Part shown: one piece after another, positions 1,422-16,805 of the stretch
Position numbering within the stretch: position 1 is the stretch's first letter
How the letters are laid out: each line of letters begins with the position of its first letter
IMG/VR virus record: IMGVR_UViG_2537562015_000009
From: a virus
Taxonomy: Duplodnaviria; Heunggongvirae; Uroviricota; Caudoviricetes
Reading direction: 5' to 3' (one strand)
DNA length: 23,248 nucleotides
Made by a program: the position numbers and the translations under genes
The notes under the pieces: generated by a model
Told to the model about the DNA's origin: nothing
The model's database searches: none
The model's input: only the letters and a program-made list of their open reading frames with translations

Positions 1422-3893
1422 TTAAAAATCAGCCTGACTCGGGATCAGTTTTTGCCAGATAGCTGAAACGTATTTTGCCTGGTAACGGGCGTCATCAAGT
1501 GCATTATGGCGCTCACCTTCGAATGGAATAGCCGTTCTGGCATCGAAGCCTATGGCTTTCCCCAGCTCAACGATTGTGCGTACATCGCGATCGTTGTAGT
1601 AACGCCACGGGCAGGGGATCCCCTGCCGCTCGTATGAACGGCGCAAAATCGTGTTGTCGAAGTTGGCTCCATTTCCCCAGACCTGAACAAAAAACTCACC
1701 GGAGTTTTCGTCGATAAATTCTCGCAATTGTAACAGAGCATCATCTAACGGGATTTCATCAGTCATAATGGCAGATTGCGCTTCGCGTGATTGCTTCAGC
1801 CACCATTTAATGGTGTCCCGATCAATGACTCCGCCAGCAGTTTCCAGATCGATAGTCTTACTAAATTCCGGTCCCATATCTCCGGTTTGCGGATCGAAAA
1901 ATATTGCACCTATTGAGATAATCGGGGCATCAGGATTTTTTCCCATGGTTTCGAGGTCGATCATTAGATGGCCACACGTCCTGCTGGTGGATGTGATTTC
2001 GTGATGACCGTTCACCTTAATTGAGTGATCTGCCGCCTCGCCAGTTGCATTATCGCTGGCGTGGTCCTGAGCGCTGCCAGCATTCTCCTTGTGTGGATGT
2101 TCAGCGCCTTCCATTTCCTCCGGATCGTTTTCCTGAACTTCAACCTGATTCTCTTCATCGAATGTTTCCTGGTATGTTGCGTCCCCCATCACCGCGCCAC
2201 AATCAGGGCAGTTGCCGCCACCGCTCTGACCACAGGCGGTGCAGGCTTTTTCCGGTTCCTGTTGCGCTACTGGTTCAGGTTGTTTCGTTTCTGGCTCGTT
2301 TTGTTGCGTATTTGGGCTGTTTTGTTCCGCTTTCTGGTCGTTCTGTTCCGTTTCTTGCTGGTTCTGGTTCACAGAATCGCGGGTTTCAATCCCCTTCACC
2401 CATTTCGGATCATTCGGGTCGCTAATCCCTTCAATAAATTCACCACGTGATGCAGCAAGCAACTTATCGGCGTCAGGCTGGCTGATATTGGCTGCCTGCA
2501 TAATTTTGTTTACTTCGTCAGCGGTAACTTTTACCGGTTCTGGCTGTGCGGTCGTGTCAGATGCACCAGTATTTTGTTGTGAACCTGAGCATGTACTGTT
2601 TTTGCGGGCGAAATATTCTTCTTTCGTGATTTCAGTAGCCCCGGCAGCCAGCGCCTTATCCAGACCAGAAAGTTTGTTTGCGCGACCGTATTTTTCGCCA
2701 TCCTTGTCGGTGAAGAGGAAGTAGAACGGCCCCTCACGCTCTACAGATGGTTCGACTTCCACTTTGCATTCGGTTTTTTCGTTGTCCGGAATTGCCGTTT
2801 CCACTGCATCAGTTTCTGGTACTGGCGACGAGAGAGTATCAGTTGCGCTCTGATTTGTTCCTTCATCTTCAAACACGCCCTTTGTAGTCAGGTATTCAGT
2901 AATGTATTTGTTCAGTGCCACAGGGTCTTTGTGAATGTCGATCGGACGTTCACGAACAAGGCCAAAAATAGTCTGGCGGTCGTAGCGAAGGGTATCAGGC
3001 TGTTTGCGCATTGATGCCGAGATACGCTTCCAGTCTTCGCGGTCGTTGTTGATAACTTCATTTTTTGCCCAGCGATGGATGCTGCCGTCAATGTTTCCGG
3101 CATCAATGTCACCAGGCCACAGAGCGTAGGCCAGTTCATCATCCAGTGTTTTCCATGTCTGCTTGTATTCGCGATGAGTGGCAGCAATGGCCGGGTTGAT
3201 TTTTCCTGTTGAATTTTCAGTGTTCTGTTGATTGGCTCTGGCGCGGGCGAGATCAACAACAGACGTGTATTTTCCGGTTTCCTTGCGTTCACCTTCGCGA
3301 CGTTTTTTCCAGATGCGCATCTCTGCCTGAATTTCGGGCCATTTGGCACCAGGCTTACATTTATGCTTAACCCACCCGATGGCATGCAGCTTAAGCTCCG
3401 GATACATGGCGTTAACTTCTGGCATTTTCATCAACGCTTCAACGATATGTCCGTCGAATGTTGCCATGTCTTCCTGCAACAATTCCTGCGCGCTAATCAC
3501 CATATCAACGGTGATATTTTCACATGTGTCGAACTTAACCATGACAGCGTTCTGTACTTCAGGGGCCAGCTTGTCAAAAGTGACGTTCATCGGATCTGAT
3601 TCAGTCTCAACCGGGACAAAGGAAGCAGACTCCTCATCCCAGCGGTTTTCCTGCATATATTCGGTATCCCAGGAGTCGATAGCAGGGCGGGGTATACCGG
3701 GTTTATCCTCGCAAACAAGAAATTTATAAGCACAGTCCTGAGCAGCCGGATAATGTTCCAGGAATTGCCAGTGAAATTTTGCGCGGGCGCGACGTTCATC
3801 ACCAGCTTCAATGGCAGTGGCTACAGCGACTGCACCTTCTTCCTTTATTGCCTGTTCGTCCGGAATGGCGGCGCAAATAAAGACTTTACTCAT
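1422..3893 (-). CDS. RecE-like exonuclease (exodeoxyribonuclease VIII-like) with C-terminal DEDDh (DnaQ-like) 3'-5' exonuclease domain
   Basis: 823 aa ORF, ATG 3891-3893, TAA 1422-1424; C-terminal motifs LMIDLETMG (Exo I), GNGANFDNTIL (Exo II), HNALDDARYQAKY (Exo III); central Q/E/N/P-rich low-complexity linker and CxxC..CxxC (CTACGQSGGGNCPDCG) motif. Confidence 0.7.
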   Translation of the reverse strand: MSKVFICAAIPDEQAIKEEGAVAVATAIEAGDERRARAKFHWQFLEHYPAAQDCAYKFLVCEDKPGIPRPAIDSWDTEYMQENRWDEESASFVPVETESDPMNVTFDKLAPEVQNAVMVKFDTCENITVDMVISAQELLQEDMATFDGHIVEALMKMPEVNAMYPELKLHAIGWVKHKCKPGAKWPEIQAEMRIWKKRREGERKETGKYTSVVDLARARANQQNTENSTGKINPAIAATHREYKQTWKTLDDELAYALWPGDIDAGNIDGSIHRWAKNEVINNDREDWKRISASMRKQPDTLRYDRQTIFGLVRERPIDIHKDPVALNKYITEYLTTKGVFEDEGTNQSATDTLSSPVPETDAVETAIPDNEKTECKVEVEPSVEREGPFYFLFTDKDGEKYGRANKLSGLDKALAAGATEITKEEYFARKNSTCSGSQQNTGASDTTAQPEPVKVTADEVNKIMQAANISQPDADKLLAASRGEFIEGISDPNDPKWVKGIETRDSVNQNQQETEQNDQKAEQNSPNTQQNEPETKQPEPVAQQEPEKACTACGQSGGGNCPDCGAVMGDATYQETFDEENQVEVQENDPEEMEGAEHPHKENAGSAQDHASDNATGEAADHSIKVNGHHEITSTSRTCGHLMIDLETMGKNPDAPIISIGAIFFDPQTGDMGPEFSKTIDLETAGGVIDRDTIKWWLKQSREAQSAIMTDEIPLDDALLQLREFIDENSGEFFVQVWGNGANFDNTILRRSYERQGIPCPWRYYNDRDVRTIVELGKAIGFDARTAIPFEGERHNALDDARYQAKYVSAIWQKLIPSQADF

Positions 3894-4177: not shown

Positions 4178-4362
4178 TGCCAGCATCCTTTTTGCATCAG
4201 GCGTAAACGGGCCAGCATTGAAACAATGCATATTTTATCCAATAGCTCCCGTTCTTGTTTCCTCTTGTTAATGGCATCTTCAGTAAATACTGGGTTACTG
4301 ATAGTGACACCAATTTCAAAACAACCTTCAGACGTATTAACGTTTGGTAATAACGTTTTCAT
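4174..4362 (-). CDS. Small hypothetical protein (62 aa)
   Basis: Internal ATG at 4360-4362 is preceded by strong RBS GAGGGTG (7 nt spacing); the track ORF start at 4461 has no RBS. Confidence 0.5.
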   Translation of the reverse strand: MKTLLPNVNTSEGCFEIGVTISNPVFTEDAINKRKQERELLDKICIVSMLARLRLMQKGCWQ

Positions 4363-4915
4363 TATCGCACCCTCAACAATGAATTTTGTGATGCGGTGCC
4401 TGGTGCCTCCAGGTGACGTTAACCAGTTAACAATTAACGCCGGATACAGAACCCCACCCATAACTTGGTTTTAACTGTTCCGCGTGCGCTTAGCCGCATT
4501 CACCGCATCACAAAATTCACTTTAAAAAGGACGGCAGAGCAGTCACGGAGTAAAACTGATACCGCCAAACGCCACCAGAAAATTGATAACAGAGGGCGTT
4601 GCAGCGGGGTTGTCACTTAAGCGCATGGTCAACCTGACAACCCGGTGTCTCAATGGGGGAGGAATAACCCCGCCATACTTACCGCCGCGCCATTTCGCGG
4701 AGTGCCACAACCGGAAGCGCACGGTCGACGAAAATTTAACGACAGGCTATCTATGAACCAACTACCTCGCCGTGCGCTTTCGCGTTATGCCCTGACTTTT
4801 CAGGAAAATGCCCTTTCAGTAAACTGTCAGTGCCGGATGCTCACCCGTGTCCGGCGCACGCACTCCACCTCACCCGTGGAGAACCCCTTAATTACCAACC
4901 CTCAGGAGGGTGAAA

Positions 4916-5136
4916 TGACTAGTAAAAATGTAAATATCCAGTTTAACCACGATGTTTCTCCTGCTGGACTTGCGGATGATCTCACCGCTATAAAAACGGC
5001 AATTATGCTACTTGCTGCTAAGTTGCCTGCGTCATCAAAGCCAGCGGAAATTTGTGACTCATTGCGTAAGATGAATTCAACAAAATGCAATGAGATGGCA
5101 TCACTTATTGAAAGTGCAATTGATTTTAATGATTAA
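4916..5136 (+). CDS. Small hypothetical protein (73 aa), convergent with neighbouring minus-strand gene
   Basis: ATG at 4916 preceded by GGAGGG (4903-4908); the upstream part of the 4645..5136 track ORF has no start/RBS; 3' end overlaps minus-strand gene 5126..5500 by 11 nt. Confidence 0.45.
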
Positions 5137-5500
5137 TCGAAATTTCATGGCTAACTGTAACCCTCCCATCTGTGGCGGGATGGTTTAAATCGCTGGGATT
5201 AATGCCGCACTCAGTAAAATGGTTCTTAAGGGGTTCTATCCGAATCCCTTTCTTTTTCATTAACAAGCCAAACCCCTTATCAATGATATCCATTAATTCC
5301 AGGAAGTATTTTTCATGTAAATCCTGGCTATCAGAGAGCCGCTTCTCTTCGTACAGACCGATAAAGGCACGACGCACGTTACCGGATATAGTATCGATGG
5401 TTTCTTTTTCTACGGTACTCAGGTCAAGAGTCGCCAGTTGGAAACGAACTATATTCGCTGCCATTTCCTGGAATTGCATTGGTAAATCTTTAAATTCCAT
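5126..5500 (-). CDS. Hypothetical protein (124 aa), early-left operon
   Basis: ATG 5498-5500 with GAGG 7 nt upstream; AT-rich; no motif recognised. Confidence 0.6.
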   Translation of the reverse strand: MEFKDLPMQFQEMAANIVRFQLATLDLSTVEKETIDTISGNVRRAFIGLYEEKRLSDSQDLHEKYFLELMDIIDKGFGLLMKKKGIRIEPLKNHFTECGINPSDLNHPATDGRVTVSHEISINH

Positions 5501-5522
5501 TATTAGCCTCGTTGGTTAGCTA

Positions 5523-5741
5523 TTAACGTGGGTATGTAATCATTCTGGCAATGCTTAATGCCGCTGCTTTTTCCAGCCTGGTGATATCCTGCTCCAGAGC
5601 GGACAGATTTTCAGCCTGCTTAGCCCTGGCTTCATTGGCCCATTTCAGATCCTGCGCTGCATTAATTTTCTGGCGCATCCACTCATAAAGTTCATCATCG
5701 GTATAGTCTGGCGCGATGATGACGGGTTCTCGTTTCTGCAT
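5523..5741 (-). CDS. Hypothetical protein (72 aa), first gene of early-left operon
   Basis: ATG 5739-5741 with GAGGA RBS (6 nt spacing); roughly 200 nt leader back to the pL-like promoter; no Arg-rich N-like motif. Confidence 0.6.
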   Translation of the reverse strand: MQKREPVIIAPDYTDDELYEWMRQKINAAQDLKWANEARAKQAENLSALEQDITRLEKAAALSIARMITYPR

Positions 5742-5932
5742 ACTGATTCCTCGCGGTGCTGTTTCCCCTTAACGCCGGGGTGGCGGAACAAAAACCTGCT
5801 GCATAGTTATTAAAGTTGAACCCTGCCGTCATGTTCTTACGCCTCGGGCTGGCTACTTACCCCCTGACCACTGCCTGGTAACTCGAAGTATTGCCCTGCA
5901 TTCTGTGGGGCGGGGTGGGTTGGTATGTTGTT

Positions 5933-6023: not shown

Positions 6024-6698
6024 TCAGTCTAAGTATTGATGTATTTGTGAAACTTTACCTTTAATGGTGTAACCACCATTCAGTTCGATGGGTTTGTAAA
6101 GCGGATTCAGTGACAACAGATAGATGTTTGGTCCGTCAATCGCAACTTTTTTTAGTGTTACGTTTGGCGTTCCTTCCAATTGGATTAAGATTATTTTTCC
6201 CACCAGTTCTCTAATGTTACTTGAGCATGGTGTGATCAGCACGGTAGATCCGTCGGGGATGGTTGGGAGGCCGTTAGAGTTTGTCATCGCATCTCCCTCA
6301 ACATGCAATAAAAAAGAGTTTTCAGCGGTTTTTGTCATGACATCAACCCAATTCTTAATACCAGGAATCTCGGTTACTGGACAACTCATATCCCAATAAC
6401 CAGCCTGTTCCCACGTTAAAACGGGCAACCGGGCGATGTTGTCACTAATGTAAAGGTACTGATTCAGACGCAGATCATCGGTTTTATCGTGACCGTCCTT
6501 TCCATAAAGAATCCATTCAGGAGATTTGGAAAGCAATTTTGACAGTAGATGCAAATTCTCACCGTCAGGTTTTGAAGAGCCATTTTCCCATTTTGTTACG
6601 GATACACGAGATATGCCGATTGCTTTCGCAACCTGCTGTTGGGTTAATCCAACGTCTTTTCGACGATTCCGAATACGTTCGCTGATAGTGTTTTTCAT
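6024..6698 (-). CDS. P22 C2/lambda CI-like repressor (N-terminal HTH, C-terminal S24 LexA-like peptidase domain); catalytic Ser replaced by Ala
   Basis: N-terminus from ATG 6696-6698 (MKNTISERIRNRRK..) parallels P22 C2 (MNTQLMGERIRARRK..); Ala-Gly cleavage site present (..WEQAGYWDM..); S24 motif reads GDAM (Ala codon GCG at 6288-6290) instead of GDSM; Lys of the dyad present (TLKKV); the track ORF extends to a TTG at 6797. Confidence 0.8.
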   Translation of the reverse strand: MKNTISERIRNRRKDVGLTQQQVAKAIGISRVSVTKWENGSSKPDGENLHLLSKLLSKSPEWILYGKDGHDKTDDLRLNQYLYISDNIARLPVLTWEQAGYWDMSCPVTEIPGIKNWVDVMTKTAENSFLLHVEGDAMTNSNGLPTIPDGSTVLITPCSSNIRELVGKIILIQLEGTPNVTLKKVAIDGPNIYLLSLNPLYKPIELNGGYTIKGKVSQIHQYLD

Positions 6699-6760
6699 GT
6701 AACCAATGTTACTACCAAGTGATGTTGCTATGGTTGACATTGTAATGTAACTATTGTTAC
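6699..6760. promoter_or_regulatory. Immunity switch region: two operator palindromes GTAAC-N4-GTTAC (6699-6712, 6747-6760) with divergent promoter elements
   Basis: GTAACCAATGTTAC abuts the cI start codon; GTAACTATTGTTAC lies between plus-strand TTGACA (6734-6739) and the cro RBS; candidate leaderless PRM -10 TAACAT inside the first operator. Confidence 0.45.
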
Positions 6761-6789
6761 CCTCCTGCTCGAAATAACAGGAGAGTTTT

Positions 6790-7005
6790 ATGTTCAAAGA
6801 TGATGTTCTGCGCTATTTCAAAAAAAAGCGACTAGTAGCTGAGGCTCTTGGAATTTCACATGTGGCTGTTGTGCGGTGGAAAGCAGTTATTCCCAAACTT
6901 CGCGCAATGGAACTGGATGAAATTACTAACGGTGAATTGAAATACAACCCAGAACTTTACAAGAAGCAGGATAGCACCTCGAACGAAGGAAAGAATGATT
7001 CATGA
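6790..7005 (+). CDS. Cro-like HTH regulator (YdaS-like)
   Basis: 71 aa, ATG 6790 with GGAGAG RBS; divergent from repressor; HTH-like ..AEALGISHVAVVRWK.. Confidence 0.7.
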   Translation: MFKDDVLRYFKKKRLVAEALGISHVAVVRWKAVIPKLRAMELDEITNGELKYNPELYKKQDSTSNEGKNDS

Positions 7006-7427
7006 AAATCAAGCATGAACACATCCGCATGGCGATGAATGCCTGGGCGCGTCCTGATGGCGAAAAAGTTCCAGCAGCTGGAATAACCCAGGCTTATTTT
7101 GAGTTGGGTATGACGTTCCCAGAACTGTATGACGACAGCCATCCGGAAGCCCTGGCTCGTAATACCCAGAAAATTTTCCGCTGGGTAGAGAAAGACACCC
7201 CTGATGCAGTTGAAAAAATTCAGGCGTTGTTACCAGCGATCGAAAAGGCAATGCCACCTTTGCTGGTGGCCAGAATGCGCAGCCACAGTTCAGCTTATTT
7301 TCGGGAGCTGGTGGAGACGCGGGAACGACTGGTGAGAGACGCTGATGATTTTGTCGCAGTGGCGATCGCTGGTTTCAATCAGATGAATCGTGGTGGCCCG
7401 GCAGGAAATGCCTTGGTGATGCACTAA
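7002..7427 (+). CDS. YdaT-like / CII-position regulatory protein
   Basis: 141 aa, ATG overlaps cro stop, AAGGAAAG RBS; N-terminus MKIKHEHI.. and position after the Cro-like gene resemble Rac YdaT (from memory, not verified). Confidence 0.5.
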   Translation: MKIKHEHIRMAMNAWARPDGEKVPAAGITQAYFELGMTFPELYDDSHPEALARNTQKIFRWVEKDTPDAVEKIQALLPAIEKAMPPLLVARMRSHSSAYFRELVETRERLVRDADDFVAVAIAGFNQMNRGGPAGNALVMH

Positions 7428-15300: not shown

Positions 15301-16065
15301 ATGGAAGAACAGCACGGTAATTACTTTATAAAACGAATTCAGTTGATTGGAAGGGGTGCATTTGGCTTTGTTGAACACGTTAAGGTTTACAACCTCAACA
15401 AGGGTGAATGTGGGGATTATGCTAGAAAGGTTTTAGCCCCCGAAAAACCAGAGCTTTTGGCGCAAATAGAGCAGTTTAGAAGGCGTTTTAAAAGGGAGGT
15501 CGTGTATCAATCACATTGCGTACATAGCAATATTGTTCCTATTTATTTGTGCGATTTGTTTGCCGAGAATCCATGGTTCATTATGGATAAAGCAGAATGT
15601 GATCTTGAGCACGAAATAACGAACAACCTTCTTACAACAGATCAAAAAATTTCAATAGTGAAAATGGTATTAGATGGTGTAGCTCACATCCATGCGAAAG
15701 GCTATTTACACAGAGATATAAAACCATTTAATGTCTTGCGATTTAGCGACGGAACATACAAGGTGTCTGATTTTGGTCTGGTAAAAGATACAAATCCCGA
15801 AGGGGATACCACTAAATTGACCGAGATCGGTACCCGTATGGGAAGTACAAGATATATGGCTCCCGAGATTTTATATAATGCCGAGTATTCAGTTAAGACT
15901 GATGTTTATGCGGTGGGGCGGTTAATTGAGGACTTAAATTTAGATGATAAAAAAATAAAGCCTATCATAGCGAAGTGTACCAGGATGGATAAAGATGATA
16001 GATATCAGACAATAGATGATGTGGCGTTTGATTTTGTGCATTCTTTTTTAAGGAGTGAGTCATGA
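15301..16065 (+). CDS. Eukaryotic-like (Hanks-type) Ser/Thr protein kinase, single-domain
   Basis: G-loop IGRGAFGFV, Lys in YARKVL, catalytic loop HRDIKPFN, DFG in VSDFGLV, APE in YMAPE; 254 aa from ATG 15301 (GGTGAG RBS); AT-rich relative to flanks. Confidence 0.85.
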   Translation: MEEQHGNYFIKRIQLIGRGAFGFVEHVKVYNLNKGECGDYARKVLAPEKPELLAQIEQFRRRFKREVVYQSHCVHSNIVPIYLCDLFAENPWFIMDKAECDLEHEITNNLLTTDQKISIVKMVLDGVAHIHAKGYLHRDIKPFNVLRFSDGTYKVSDFGLVKDTNPEGDTTKLTEIGTRMGSTRYMAPEILYNAEYSVKTDVYAVGRLIEDLNLDDKKIKPIIAKCTRMDKDDRYQTIDDVAFDFVHSFLRSES

Positions 16066-16805
16066 TTCAGCTGATAGCGACTTCATCATTCTCGTATCCA
16101 AAAGAACCAGGTAGGGTCAACGAAGATTCATTGCTTCCTCCCAAAATTGTAGGGGATGGCATCTTATTTGCCGTAGCTGATGGTGTAGGTTCATACACTG
16201 GTGCCAGTCAGGCTTCATCAATGGCAATTGCTGAACTTTCAGCATTGACAAGCTTATCTTTTGACACAGTTCCGGATGTATTTGATGAAGTTAAGCGAAA
16301 GGTTATGTCGTTAGCTGATGTTAATGATGAGTTCGATAAAGCTGCTACTACACTTACGTTTTGTTATGTTTGTGATAGCGGAATTATTATTGGTCATATT
16401 GGTGATTGTCGTTTGTATTGCATTGGAGAGAAGAAAGCATACCAATTGACGAAGGACGATACCAGGCATCAGATGCTAATTGATCAGAATATTTTTAAAC
16501 CCAGAGATTTGAAGGATAAACCGGGCAAAAATATCTTAACGACGGCTATAGCCTCAAATGTTGATATGGAATACGACTGTGATTTTATCACATGGAAAGA
16601 TTTACCTAGTATTAACGGGGTATATCATCTGTGTATCATGTCTGATGGGGTTCATAACGTTTGGGAAAAACGCCCCAGATTTACATCAAATACGATGAGT
16701 AATAGTCAGAAGTTTTCTAATGGCATTTTGCGTCGTATAGAGAGAGCCGGACCTGATGATGACTTTTCTTTAGTAAGTATAATGGTGCGTGTGACGTCAG
16801 ATTAG
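16062..16805 (+). CDS. PP2C-family (PPM) Ser/Thr protein phosphatase
   Basis: Motifs RVNEDS, FAVADGVGS, GHIGDCRLY, IMSDGV, GPDDDFS; ATG overlaps the kinase stop (ATGA), so probably translationally coupled. Confidence 0.8.
   Translation: MIQLIATSSFSYPKEPGRVNEDSLLPPKIVGDGILFAVADGVGSYTGASQASSMAIAELSALTSLSFDTVPDVFDEVKRKVMSLADVNDEFDKAATTLTFCYVCDSGIIIGHIGDCRLYCIGEKKAYQLTKDDTRHQMLIDQNIFKPRDLKDKPGKNILTTAIASNVDMEYDCDFITWKDLPSINGVYHLCIMSDGVHNVWEKRPRFTSNTMSNSQKFSNGILRRIERAGPDDDFSLVSIMVRVTSD

Follow-up and report, generated by a model that had tools for sequence, protein, structure and literature searches.

A dicBF-type operon with a 602-bp insertion

We analyzed a stretch of 23,248 nucleotides (nt) from a virus of the class Caudoviricetes (IMG/VR record IMGVR_UViG_2537562015_000009), hereafter called the window, and focused on three small open reading frames (ORFs) of 72, 124, and 73 amino acids (aa) and on a structured RNA leader that precedes the last of them. 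As the first-pass annotation of this DNA had correctly stated, the slot that they occupy is flanked by the immunity region on one side and the recombination genes on the other. Over the 646 bp that were tested, a prophage beside ompW in the enterotoxigenic Escherichia coli (ETEC) O6:H16 strain 2014EL-1346-6 has 100% identity to the window, which, judged by its sequence, is a lambdoid prophage at ompW in an ETEC-like E. coli. The order of the minus-strand genes (CI-like repressor, ydfC, 124-aa gene, DicF, dicB, ydfD, exonuclease, xis, and int) leads us to assign the region to the repressor-proximal part of an early-left dicBF operon, as in the Qin (Kim) prophage of E. coli K-12, where this operon was described (PMC5069750). 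All the genes from int to the repressor are on the minus strand, except the 73-aa ORF.

The 72-aa gene is assigned to YdfC, a member of the dicBF operon, by its near identity with the K-12 protein and by its place upstream of dicF on the same strand (Table 1). No functional information on YdfC was found in the literature searched. The first-pass annotation had regarded all three genes as unrecognised, which holds for the 124-aa and 73-aa genes but not for this one. Its statement that none of them resembles N, Gam, Kil, CIII, or SieB stands insofar as none reaches a curated cut-off in Pfam or NCBIfam, although the 72-aa gene has a name. It also overlooked the Kil-like division inhibitor DicB, the small RNA (sRNA) DicF, and YdfD (DUF1482 in Pfam), which are found just downstream of the slot; the covariance-model match to DicF is full-length (model positions 1-52). 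The three ORFs are all annotated by RefSeq in the identical E. coli genome and match PHROG families over their full length, all of them families without an assigned function. YdfC, DicF, and DicB are members of known families, and the two other genes belong to families that are catalogued without a function.

The minus-strand genes of 72 and 124 aa predicted by the first-pass annotation are both present with a ribosome-binding site (GAGGA before the ydfC ATG and GAGG 7 nt before the 124-aa ATG, by inspection of the sequence). For the plus-strand gene, the predicted GGAGGG site was found at 4905-4910, but the start had been placed at 4916 and the ATG is at 4915-4917. The 3' end of this gene overlaps that of the convergent 124-aa gene by 11 nt (5126-5136), exactly as described.

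Comparison with K-12 by BLAST revealed where these genes come in. Window positions 4524-4900 correspond to positions 2063-2440 of the K-12 locus (the spacer between ydfC and dicF) with 95% identity, and positions 5503-5765 correspond to K-12 positions 1800-2062 (ydfC and its surroundings) with 97% identity. The 602 bp in between are absent from K-12, and the insertion point lies 20 nt after ydfC. The block was described as AT-rich, which is true of the insertion (G+C content of 0.407, against 0.486 for the window; 0.378 for the 73-aa ORF and 0.411 for the 124-aa ORF) but not of ydfC (0.484). The complete cassette is present in 88 of the 5426 complete E. coli genomes, and 1450 of them match at least a part of the 646-bp query. 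The phage Tritos has no cassette, and the PPompW/Stx2a phages carry a different convergent pair (77 aa and 135 aa) at the same place.

The resemblance to the K-12 Qin operon (ydfA-ydfB-ydfC-dicF-dicB-ydfD) thus includes the succession of ydfC, a long untranslated region, dicF, dicB, and ydfD, and the high DNA identity on both sides of the insertion. The differences are that the window lacks ydfA and ydfB, that it has a LexA-family CI-like repressor where K-12 has DicA, and that K-12 has only an ORF-less remnant of the leader in place of the insertion.

Table 1. Features around the insertion, in window coordinates
Feature	Position	Strand	Basis or remarks
dicB, cell-division inhibitor, 62 aa	4174-4362	-	Pfam DicB 2.1e-38; RefSeq dicB
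DicF sRNA	4529-4580	-	Rfam RF00039, 70.8 bits (gathering score 48), E = 7.3e-15
Candidate leader promoter	TTTTCA 4797-4802; TAAACT 4820-4825	+	Inferred; 17-nt spacer; 8/12 consensus, below scanner threshold
Conserved structured leader, ~85 nt	4830-4914	+	RNAalifold, three helices; covariance model R1, 106.5 bits
Hairpin 1	4832-4855	+	9 bp including U.G and G.U pairs
Hairpin 2	4863-4881	+	RNAalifold
Anti-Shine-Dalgarno/Shine-Dalgarno helix	4884-4888 (CUCCU/CUCCA) with 4904-4908 (AGGAG/UGGAG)	+	RNAalifold
Insertion relative to K-12 Qin, 602 bp	4901-5502		Carries the Shine-Dalgarno sequence, the 73-aa ORF, and the 124-aa gene with its ribosome-binding site
73-aa gene, cargo ORF of the leader	4915-5136	+	phrog_7249 7.8e-46; 73 codons and stop
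124-aa gene, MEFKDLP family	5126-5500	-	phrog_6937 4.4e-79; sense of the early-left operon
ydfC, 72 aa	5523-5741	-	71/72 identity to K-12 YdfC; phrog_1744 1.9e-39; RefSeq name ydfC
LexA-family CI-like repressor	6024-6797	-	RefSeq annotation of the identical locus

Some smaller observations concern the same stretch. A 28-nt segment directly before ydfC (5762-5789) matches the sequence just upstream of K-12 ydfA, so the window appears to have deleted ydfA and ydfB and kept the 5' leader of the operon. In K-12-type loci (e.g., around positions 2045-2075 of locus L337), the end of the leader (ACCAAC) and the sequence following ydfC (GTTGGT) form a 6-bp inverted repeat with a 9-nt loop, and in the window the two halves (4893-4899 and 5511-5516) exactly flank the 602-bp cassette. 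Recombination or insertion might take place at this repeat, or the arrangement may be a coincidence.

The 73-aa ORF as a protein-coding gene

Among close relatives the ratio of nonsynonymous to synonymous substitution rates (dN/dS) of the 73-aa ORF is about 0.2. As a control, the antisense frame of these same sequences was examined; it too is free of stop codons, and its dN/dS is lower still (0.15), so that this measure alone does not decide on the coding strand. Furthermore, few database proteins match (6 clusters in one search and 12 with a profile, from E. coli and Salmonella). On these grounds one could propose that the ORF is a chance open frame antisense to DNA that is noncoding or codes for something else. 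The more distant homologues decide between the two strands. In homologues of 65-73% identity, which come from prophages of Salmonella and from one metagenomic contig, the ATG, the GGAGGG Shine-Dalgarno (SD) sequence, and the complete plus-strand frame are retained, whereas three stop codons interrupt the antisense frame of each. The ORF was also seen in three unrelated genomic contexts, and it shares a conserved SD-ATG spacing with the other unrelated ORFs described below. A chance frame is thus effectively refuted already, and these comparisons show the 73-aa ORF to be a real protein-coding gene.

Its predicted product is mildly acidic (isoelectric point of 5.1) and has two invariant cysteines. 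The maximum Kyte-Doolittle hydropathy over 19 residues (KD19) is 1.27, which predicts a soluble protein without a membrane segment. An AlphaFold2 (AF2) model consists of three helices, with a predicted local distance difference test (pLDDT) score of 65.

A structured leader with compensatory changes

The conservation does not stop at the start codon. About 85 nt before the ATG are conserved wherever the 73-aa family occurs, and the sequence farther upstream is unrelated from one context to the other: across at least four unrelated upstream contexts, the conservation starts at hairpin 1. When 16 diverse leaders were given to RNAalifold, 97.2% of the cells were paired and four pairs had compensatory changes. 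Controls in which the structure was slid along the alignment had 33-50% of the cells paired and virtually no compensation. Hairpin 2 varies from CUCCAC/GUGGAG to CCCAAC/GUUGGG and to CCAAU/AUUGG, one further compensatory variant of it was found in locus L213, and a U-A pair of the helix that would sequester the SD sequence is replaced by A-U in 5 of the 16 leaders. The plus strand folds better than shuffled sequence (z = -3.36, versus z = 0.04 for the minus strand), and the wobble pairs of helix 1 can form on the plus strand only, where the minus strand would have A.C mismatches.

This leader is frequent. A scan of IMG/VR for the core of hairpin 1 provided around 100 distinct sites with enough flanking sequence for analysis, and the core was found in 3119 of the 5426 complete E. 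coli genomes (57%), with up to five copies per genome. The covariance model R1 finds a single copy in the window. Outside the window, it recovers with 63 bits a remnant in K-12 Qin that lacks any annotation and is located on the antisense strand of the ydfC-dicF spacer. The leader has no family match in Rfam, even with lax filters, and in the literature searched we found nothing on the leader or on the 73-aa and 124-aa families. A scan of genome contigs for a 16-nt hairpin pattern yielded, among the matches listed, only chance ones in GC-rich genomes and hence provides no taxonomic information.

Two candidate roles for the structure were considered and rejected. Pairing of DicF with the leader has a duplex energy no better than that of DicF with shuffled leaders. 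The second was an antiterminator of the put type of HK022, a two-stem structure on the sense strand of the operon and downstream of its early promoter, which disagrees with the folding of the minus strand (z = 0.04) and with wobble pairs and an anti-SD helix that are specific to the plus strand. The model R1 has no match in the stretch of HK022 between 22 and 28 kb, which was not confirmed to include putL, so that this is not a direct comparison with put.

Exchangeable cargo behind the leader

In different prophages, the leader precedes at least six small ORF families that are unrelated in all-against-all BLASTP comparisons. These ORFs have the same SD-ATG spacing, count 63-96 codons, and are on the strand opposite to the early-left operon. 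Named by their first residues, they are MTSKN (73 aa, the family of the window, with a distant relative NTIKT), MLKST (77 aa), MTQEE (63 or 69 aa), the weakly related pair of MSTEN (91 aa) and MDKKQ (92 aa), MDQNE (73 aa, in phage phi367), and MDKKL (96 aa). Following a rough estimate that was not computed, a frame would stay open for at least 63 codons from a fixed ATG with a chance of about 0.05, and six unrelated cases are therefore not expected by chance. The maximum KD19 hydropathy of the cargo ORFs (0.59-1.43) is below the range of membrane helices. These comparisons identify the leader as a fixed entry point for exchangeable cargo.

The 124-aa protein and its family

The family of the 124-aa protein is small. 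We found 238 homologues in a word-indexed search, nearly all the named ones from Escherichia and one from Salmonella, and only 44 clusters came out of an exhaustive HMMER search that covered 1.84 billion representative proteins. The alignments reveal about 55 conserved N-terminal residues with invariant motifs (MxFKDLP ... NVRxxFxGLY), followed by C-terminal modules that are unrelated to one another and result in total lengths of 106-208 aa. Residues 1-63 also match phrog_1363, phrog_2151, and phrog_9419. In ten diverse members of the family, the C-terminal modules matched no Pfam family at the curated cut-off. One such module (MNDTELKH...) is also found as a free-standing protein of 57 aa. 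We therefore describe the MEFKDLP family, as defined by these alignments, as a small Escherichia/Salmonella family with a fixed N terminus joined to interchangeable C-terminal modules. Within a subtype the dN/dS of the N-terminal coding part is 0.15-0.3. The AF2 model of the 124-aa protein has three helices and a disordered tail (pLDDT of 62), and the conserved N terminus is a predicted helical hairpin. The gene has the sense of the operon and is expected to be expressed with the early-left genes.

The motif can be found in another position. In a Salmonella prophage (locus L084, 3346-3735), a partner gene of 129 aa ends in a degenerate version of the N-terminal motif (KFKLKELPHEIQLEAARTY), which suggests that the conserved module can also sit at the C terminus.

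Two modules rather than a cognate pair

The first-pass annotation noted that positions beside the immunity region are known hot spots of exclusion and defence genes. The slot is indeed a hot spot of gene turnover, as seen from the 602-bp indel, the variable C-terminal modules, and the unrelated ORFs behind the leader. One alternative is that the two inserted genes form a cognate module, i.e., a toxin-antitoxin system, a polymorphic toxin with its immunity protein, or an effector with its regulator, so that the small convergent protein would be the specific counterpart of the variable C terminus in the 124-aa protein. Each cargo type in E. coli does accompany one C-terminal type of the MEFKDLP family (73 aa with 124 aa, 77 aa with 135 aa, 92 aa with 133 aa, and the 73 aa of MDQNE with 187 aa). 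The 3' ends overlap in every E. coli cassette type, by 11 to 122 nt, and a constant N terminus with a variable C terminus is what one finds in polymorphic toxins. However, conserved sequence anchors the variable segment at both ends (the leader at one, the part of the MEFKDLP gene that encodes the N terminus at the other), so that this co-variation is expected from linkage alone.

Moreover, each gene occurs without the other. At 37 leader sites the ORF has been lost to a deletion with one end inside the 3' arm of hairpin 2; the 124-aa gene remains whole there and evolves under purifying selection. Its stop codon is 306-307 nt from dicF in loci without the 73-aa ORF, versus 544-549 nt in loci with it. 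Conversely, the 73-aa family is found in Salmonella prophages with a Cox/integrase switch, opposite to unrelated partners of 111 aa or 57 aa. C-terminal modules like that of the 124-aa protein are paired with the MTSKN cargo, with the unrelated MSTEN cargo, or with no cargo at all.

The comparison with the known classes of such modules points in the same direction. In type II toxin-antitoxin systems the two genes occur together obligatorily and form a co-directional bicistron, whereas here co-occurrence is not obligate and the genes are convergent. Type I toxins are small hydrophobic proteins, usually of less than 60 aa with a membrane helix, which does not describe cargo of 63-96 aa. The MEFKDLP family does have the conserved N terminus and variable C-terminal modules of polymorphic toxins, but no toxin or secretion domain was detected in it, nor a cognate immunity gene directly downstream, and PADLOC provides no match. 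A cognate pair therefore seems to us quite improbable. Since each gene is found without the other, we treat the 602-bp segment as two independent accessory modules.

A proposed expression unit and its alternatives

How could the cargo be expressed? With all its neighbors between int and the repressor transcribed from the minus strand, the 73-aa ORF would need its own promoter. We propose that the leader and the ORF form a transcription unit of their own, with a weak promoter just upstream of hairpin 1 (Table 1). In the alignment of the loci with a dicF context, the hexamers TTTTCA and TAAACT are constant and the spacer of 17-18 nt is variable, and a TAARCTG motif precedes hairpin 1 by 6-7 nt in several upstream contexts that are unrelated to one another. 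Such a unit would be independent of the repressed early-left promoter and could be expressed in the lysogen. The pairing of the SD sequence with the anti-SD segment would gate the translation of the cargo. The scan for terminators found no convincing one between the convergent genes, which, together with the recurrent overlap, makes an antisense interaction between them physically possible, as the first-pass annotation had suggested. With no terminator above chance after the cargo ORFs, rightward transcripts should continue antisense into the 124-aa gene and ydfC, and this transcription might damp leftward read-through toward the toxic dicF and dicB.

Taken together, our preferred explanation is a slot in the dicBF operon that holds two independent modules, one of them a leader with swappable cargo that would act as an autonomous and gated unit. 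We hold it with only slightly better than even confidence, and it should be interpreted with caution, since several observations weigh against it. The scan for promoters upstream of the leader gave nothing above threshold, and that for terminators after the cargo ORFs of four loci gave nothing above chance expectation, so that we can only infer an independent unit. The anti-SD helix of the window itself has a C.A mismatch, and when its leader is folded as a single sequence a local SD hairpin is favored. The compensatory changes come from few lineages (the Salmonella clade, L086, and L194) and may amount to only 2-4 independent events. No functional clue was found for either protein, and both AF2 models are of modest confidence. 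Finally, around half of the leader copies lack an ORF or SD sequence. Besides the deletion type described above, these comprise a K-12/Tritos type, in which both hairpins are kept and abut the end of ydfC, and the Stx-encoding Oslovirus phages, which keep only hairpin 1, separated by 29 nt from the stop codon of a preceding gene of the MQFKDLP family. Hence, the hairpins may have a role irrespective of the cargo.

Such a role could be on the other strand. The hairpins might belong to the leftward dicBF transcript and serve its processing, its stability, or antitermination before the DicF terminator, and the plus-strand ORFs would then merely have landed at an adjoining site prone to recombination. 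A long untranslated region in the dicBF operon, with processing ahead of dicF, has been described (PMC5069750), and the persistence of hairpins in loci without an ORF, including K-12 Qin and the Stx phages, is in line with this explanation. A few singleton hairpin variants also pair better on the minus strand (e.g., ACCGGA...TCCGGC and GTAGAG), some of which would give G.U pairs there. The folding of the minus strand is, however, no better than that of shuffled sequence. The two wobble pairs of helix 1 become mismatches on that strand, C-to-U variants pair on the plus strand only, and the anti-SD/SD helix with its compensatory change from U-A to A-U makes sense on the plus strand only. In addition, the element accompanies the 73-aa family into Salmonella prophages whose called genes do not include DicB (dicF was not searched for in these). 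We thus regard a role of the hairpins in the leftward transcript as unlikely and retain the plus-strand leader as our working explanation.

One more structure is located inside ydfC, on its antisense strand. At 5546-5563 (plus strand) there is a weak terminator-like hairpin followed by a run of T (TGGCAATGCTTAATGCCG CTGCTTTTTC), which is conserved in locus L002. In ORF-less loci of the K-12 type, it would end an RNA of about 150 nt starting at the leader, which is speculative.

Function of the inserted genes

The first-pass annotation pointed to superinfection exclusion and defence as the functions for which such positions are known. Following this, one or both inserted genes could be a superinfection-exclusion or anti-phage defence gene. 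The place next to the immunity region, the AT-rich composition with variation in presence and absence, and an orientation that permits expression independently of the repressor all fit. Furthermore, the neighboring DicB is said, in work by Ragunathan and Vanderpool in 2019, to protect against phage. Yet none of the three proteins could be tied to such a function. PADLOC (PADLOC-DB 2.0) has no family at E <= 1 for any of them, and Pfam has no match at the curated cut-off between them and the early-left families of lambda (N, Gam, Kil, CIII, SieB, and Ral). For the three proteins there was no sequence match above cut-offs in Pfam, NCBIfam, PADLOC, or PDB. The fold search that had been recommended, with the AF2 models against PDB in Foldseek, was carried out for the 124-aa and 73-aa proteins and was empty, with best E-values of 3 (124 aa) and 6.3 (73 aa), which are meaningless. 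All three proteins lack a membrane segment by hydropathy, unlike exclusion proteins of the SieB or Imm type. As to the 124-aa gene, its orientation with the lytic early operon would suit host takeover or counter-defence at least equally. A dedicated exclusion or defence gene is plausible but, in our view, less likely than not.

We find it most likely, given their position, turnover, and size, that the 73-aa and 124-aa proteins would be small binding proteins involved in phage-host or phage-phage conflict, for which exclusion, defence, and counter-defence are all possible.

Comparison with known systems

The architecture is closest to that of morons and of the hot spots of accessory genes. Phage morons, such as bor and lom of lambda or gp15 of HK97, are small accessory genes between the genes of an operon, variably present and of deviant base composition, and bor is on the strand opposite to its neighbors and is expressed from the prophage. 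The cassette shares the variable presence and the low G+C content. It differs in that morons are defined by their own promoter and terminator, where we have a promoter-like sequence below threshold and terminator-like sites at chance frequency. To our knowledge, morons have not been described as sharing a structured leader in front of cargo that can be exchanged. In the hot spots of antiviral systems of P2-like phages and P4-like satellites (PMC9122126), unrelated accessory genes also replace each other at a fixed position of a temperate phage between conserved borders. These hot spots belong to another group of phages and another position, the cargo here consists of single tiny ORFs that match no known system, and the conserved boundary is an RNA leader.

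Other systems are more distant. The antisense RNA OOP lies opposite cII in lambda, and the early-left region of Rac encodes the type I toxin-antitoxin system RalR/RalA; type I toxin mRNAs carry leaders that sequester the SD sequence. In both examples, a lambdoid phage has an early-operon gene whose 3' end is overlapped by a convergent transcript. They differ from the unit studied here, which encodes soluble proteins of 63-96 aa and not an sRNA or a short hydrophobic toxin. With type I toxin-antitoxin systems, only the geometry is compatible (the convergent overlap and the SD-sequestering leader). Polymorphic toxin-immunity systems (CdiA-CT/CdiI, Rhs, and colicin-type) resemble the cassette in the fixed N terminus, the unrelated C termini, and the small variable neighbor gene. 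They are different from proteins of 106-208 aa without a secretion or toxin domain, next to a small gene that is convergent and not obligate.

For two features we found no earlier description, namely a riboregulator-like leader shared by cargo genes that replace one another, and a partner family that combines a conserved N terminus with swappable C termini. The dicBF locus has been under study for more than 30 years. Yet what lies between ydfC and dicF has been treated as a mere untranslated region, although it carries on its opposite strand a structured RNA that neither Rfam nor RefSeq annotates, that is present in more than half of the complete E. coli genomes, and that leads in many prophages into interchangeable small genes. 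The dicBF operon is itself widely retained in the resident prophages of E. coli (PMC5069750). In a bolder version of our proposal, the leader would be an undescribed expression socket, in which a weak constitutive promoter is combined with two stem-loops and a helix that sequesters the SD sequence. Phages would swap the cargo by recombination between the two anchors, the effectors would be expressed in the lysogen under the gating of the leader and act in conflicts among phages or with the host, and antisense transcription would restrain leaky dicF and dicB. We consider this complete scenario tentative and rather unlikely to hold in all its parts. If the autonomous gated unit is real, it would provide a defined place for new small prophage effectors (of exclusion, defence, or counter-defence), a possible antisense brake on the toxic dicF and dicB, and a compact natural 5' leader to study. 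If the leader is merely a remnant, the finding shrinks to two more hypothetical prophage genes in a known operon.

Other observations in the window

Several features outside the slot deserve mention. A match to the sRNA STnc100 in Rfam, below threshold (38.3 bits versus a gathering score of 47; E = 4.7e-06), covers positions 4346-4531 on the minus strand, which comprise the DicF-dicB spacer and the beginning of dicB. Farther downstream in the operon, the 823-aa "exonuclease" (1422-3893, minus strand) has an Rv2179c-like 3'-5' exoribonuclease domain at its C terminus (residues 642-813, 9.4e-68) and about 640 preceding residues without a Pfam match; relatives at other loci join Exonuc_VIII to the Rv2179c-like domain. 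On the other side of the repressor, the gene after the Cro-like gene, in the position of cII (7002-7427, plus strand), belongs to the YdaT family (Pfam YdaT_toxin, 7.4e-10), and its product is labeled "toxin YdaT family protein" in RefSeq.

The most AT-rich block of the window is in the region 14461-16805 (G+C content of 0.38-0.40), directly after the Q antiterminator (14461-15156; Pfam Phage_antiter_Q, 5.2e-84). Its first product is a Ser/Thr protein kinase (15226-16065) with matches to three PADLOC models, mad6 (the best, 3.4e-40), PD-T4-6 (1.5e-34), and Stk2, and a PP2C-type phosphatase (16062-16805) follows. By these matches, the kinase and the phosphatase look like a candidate kinase-based defence module in the late-regulatory region.

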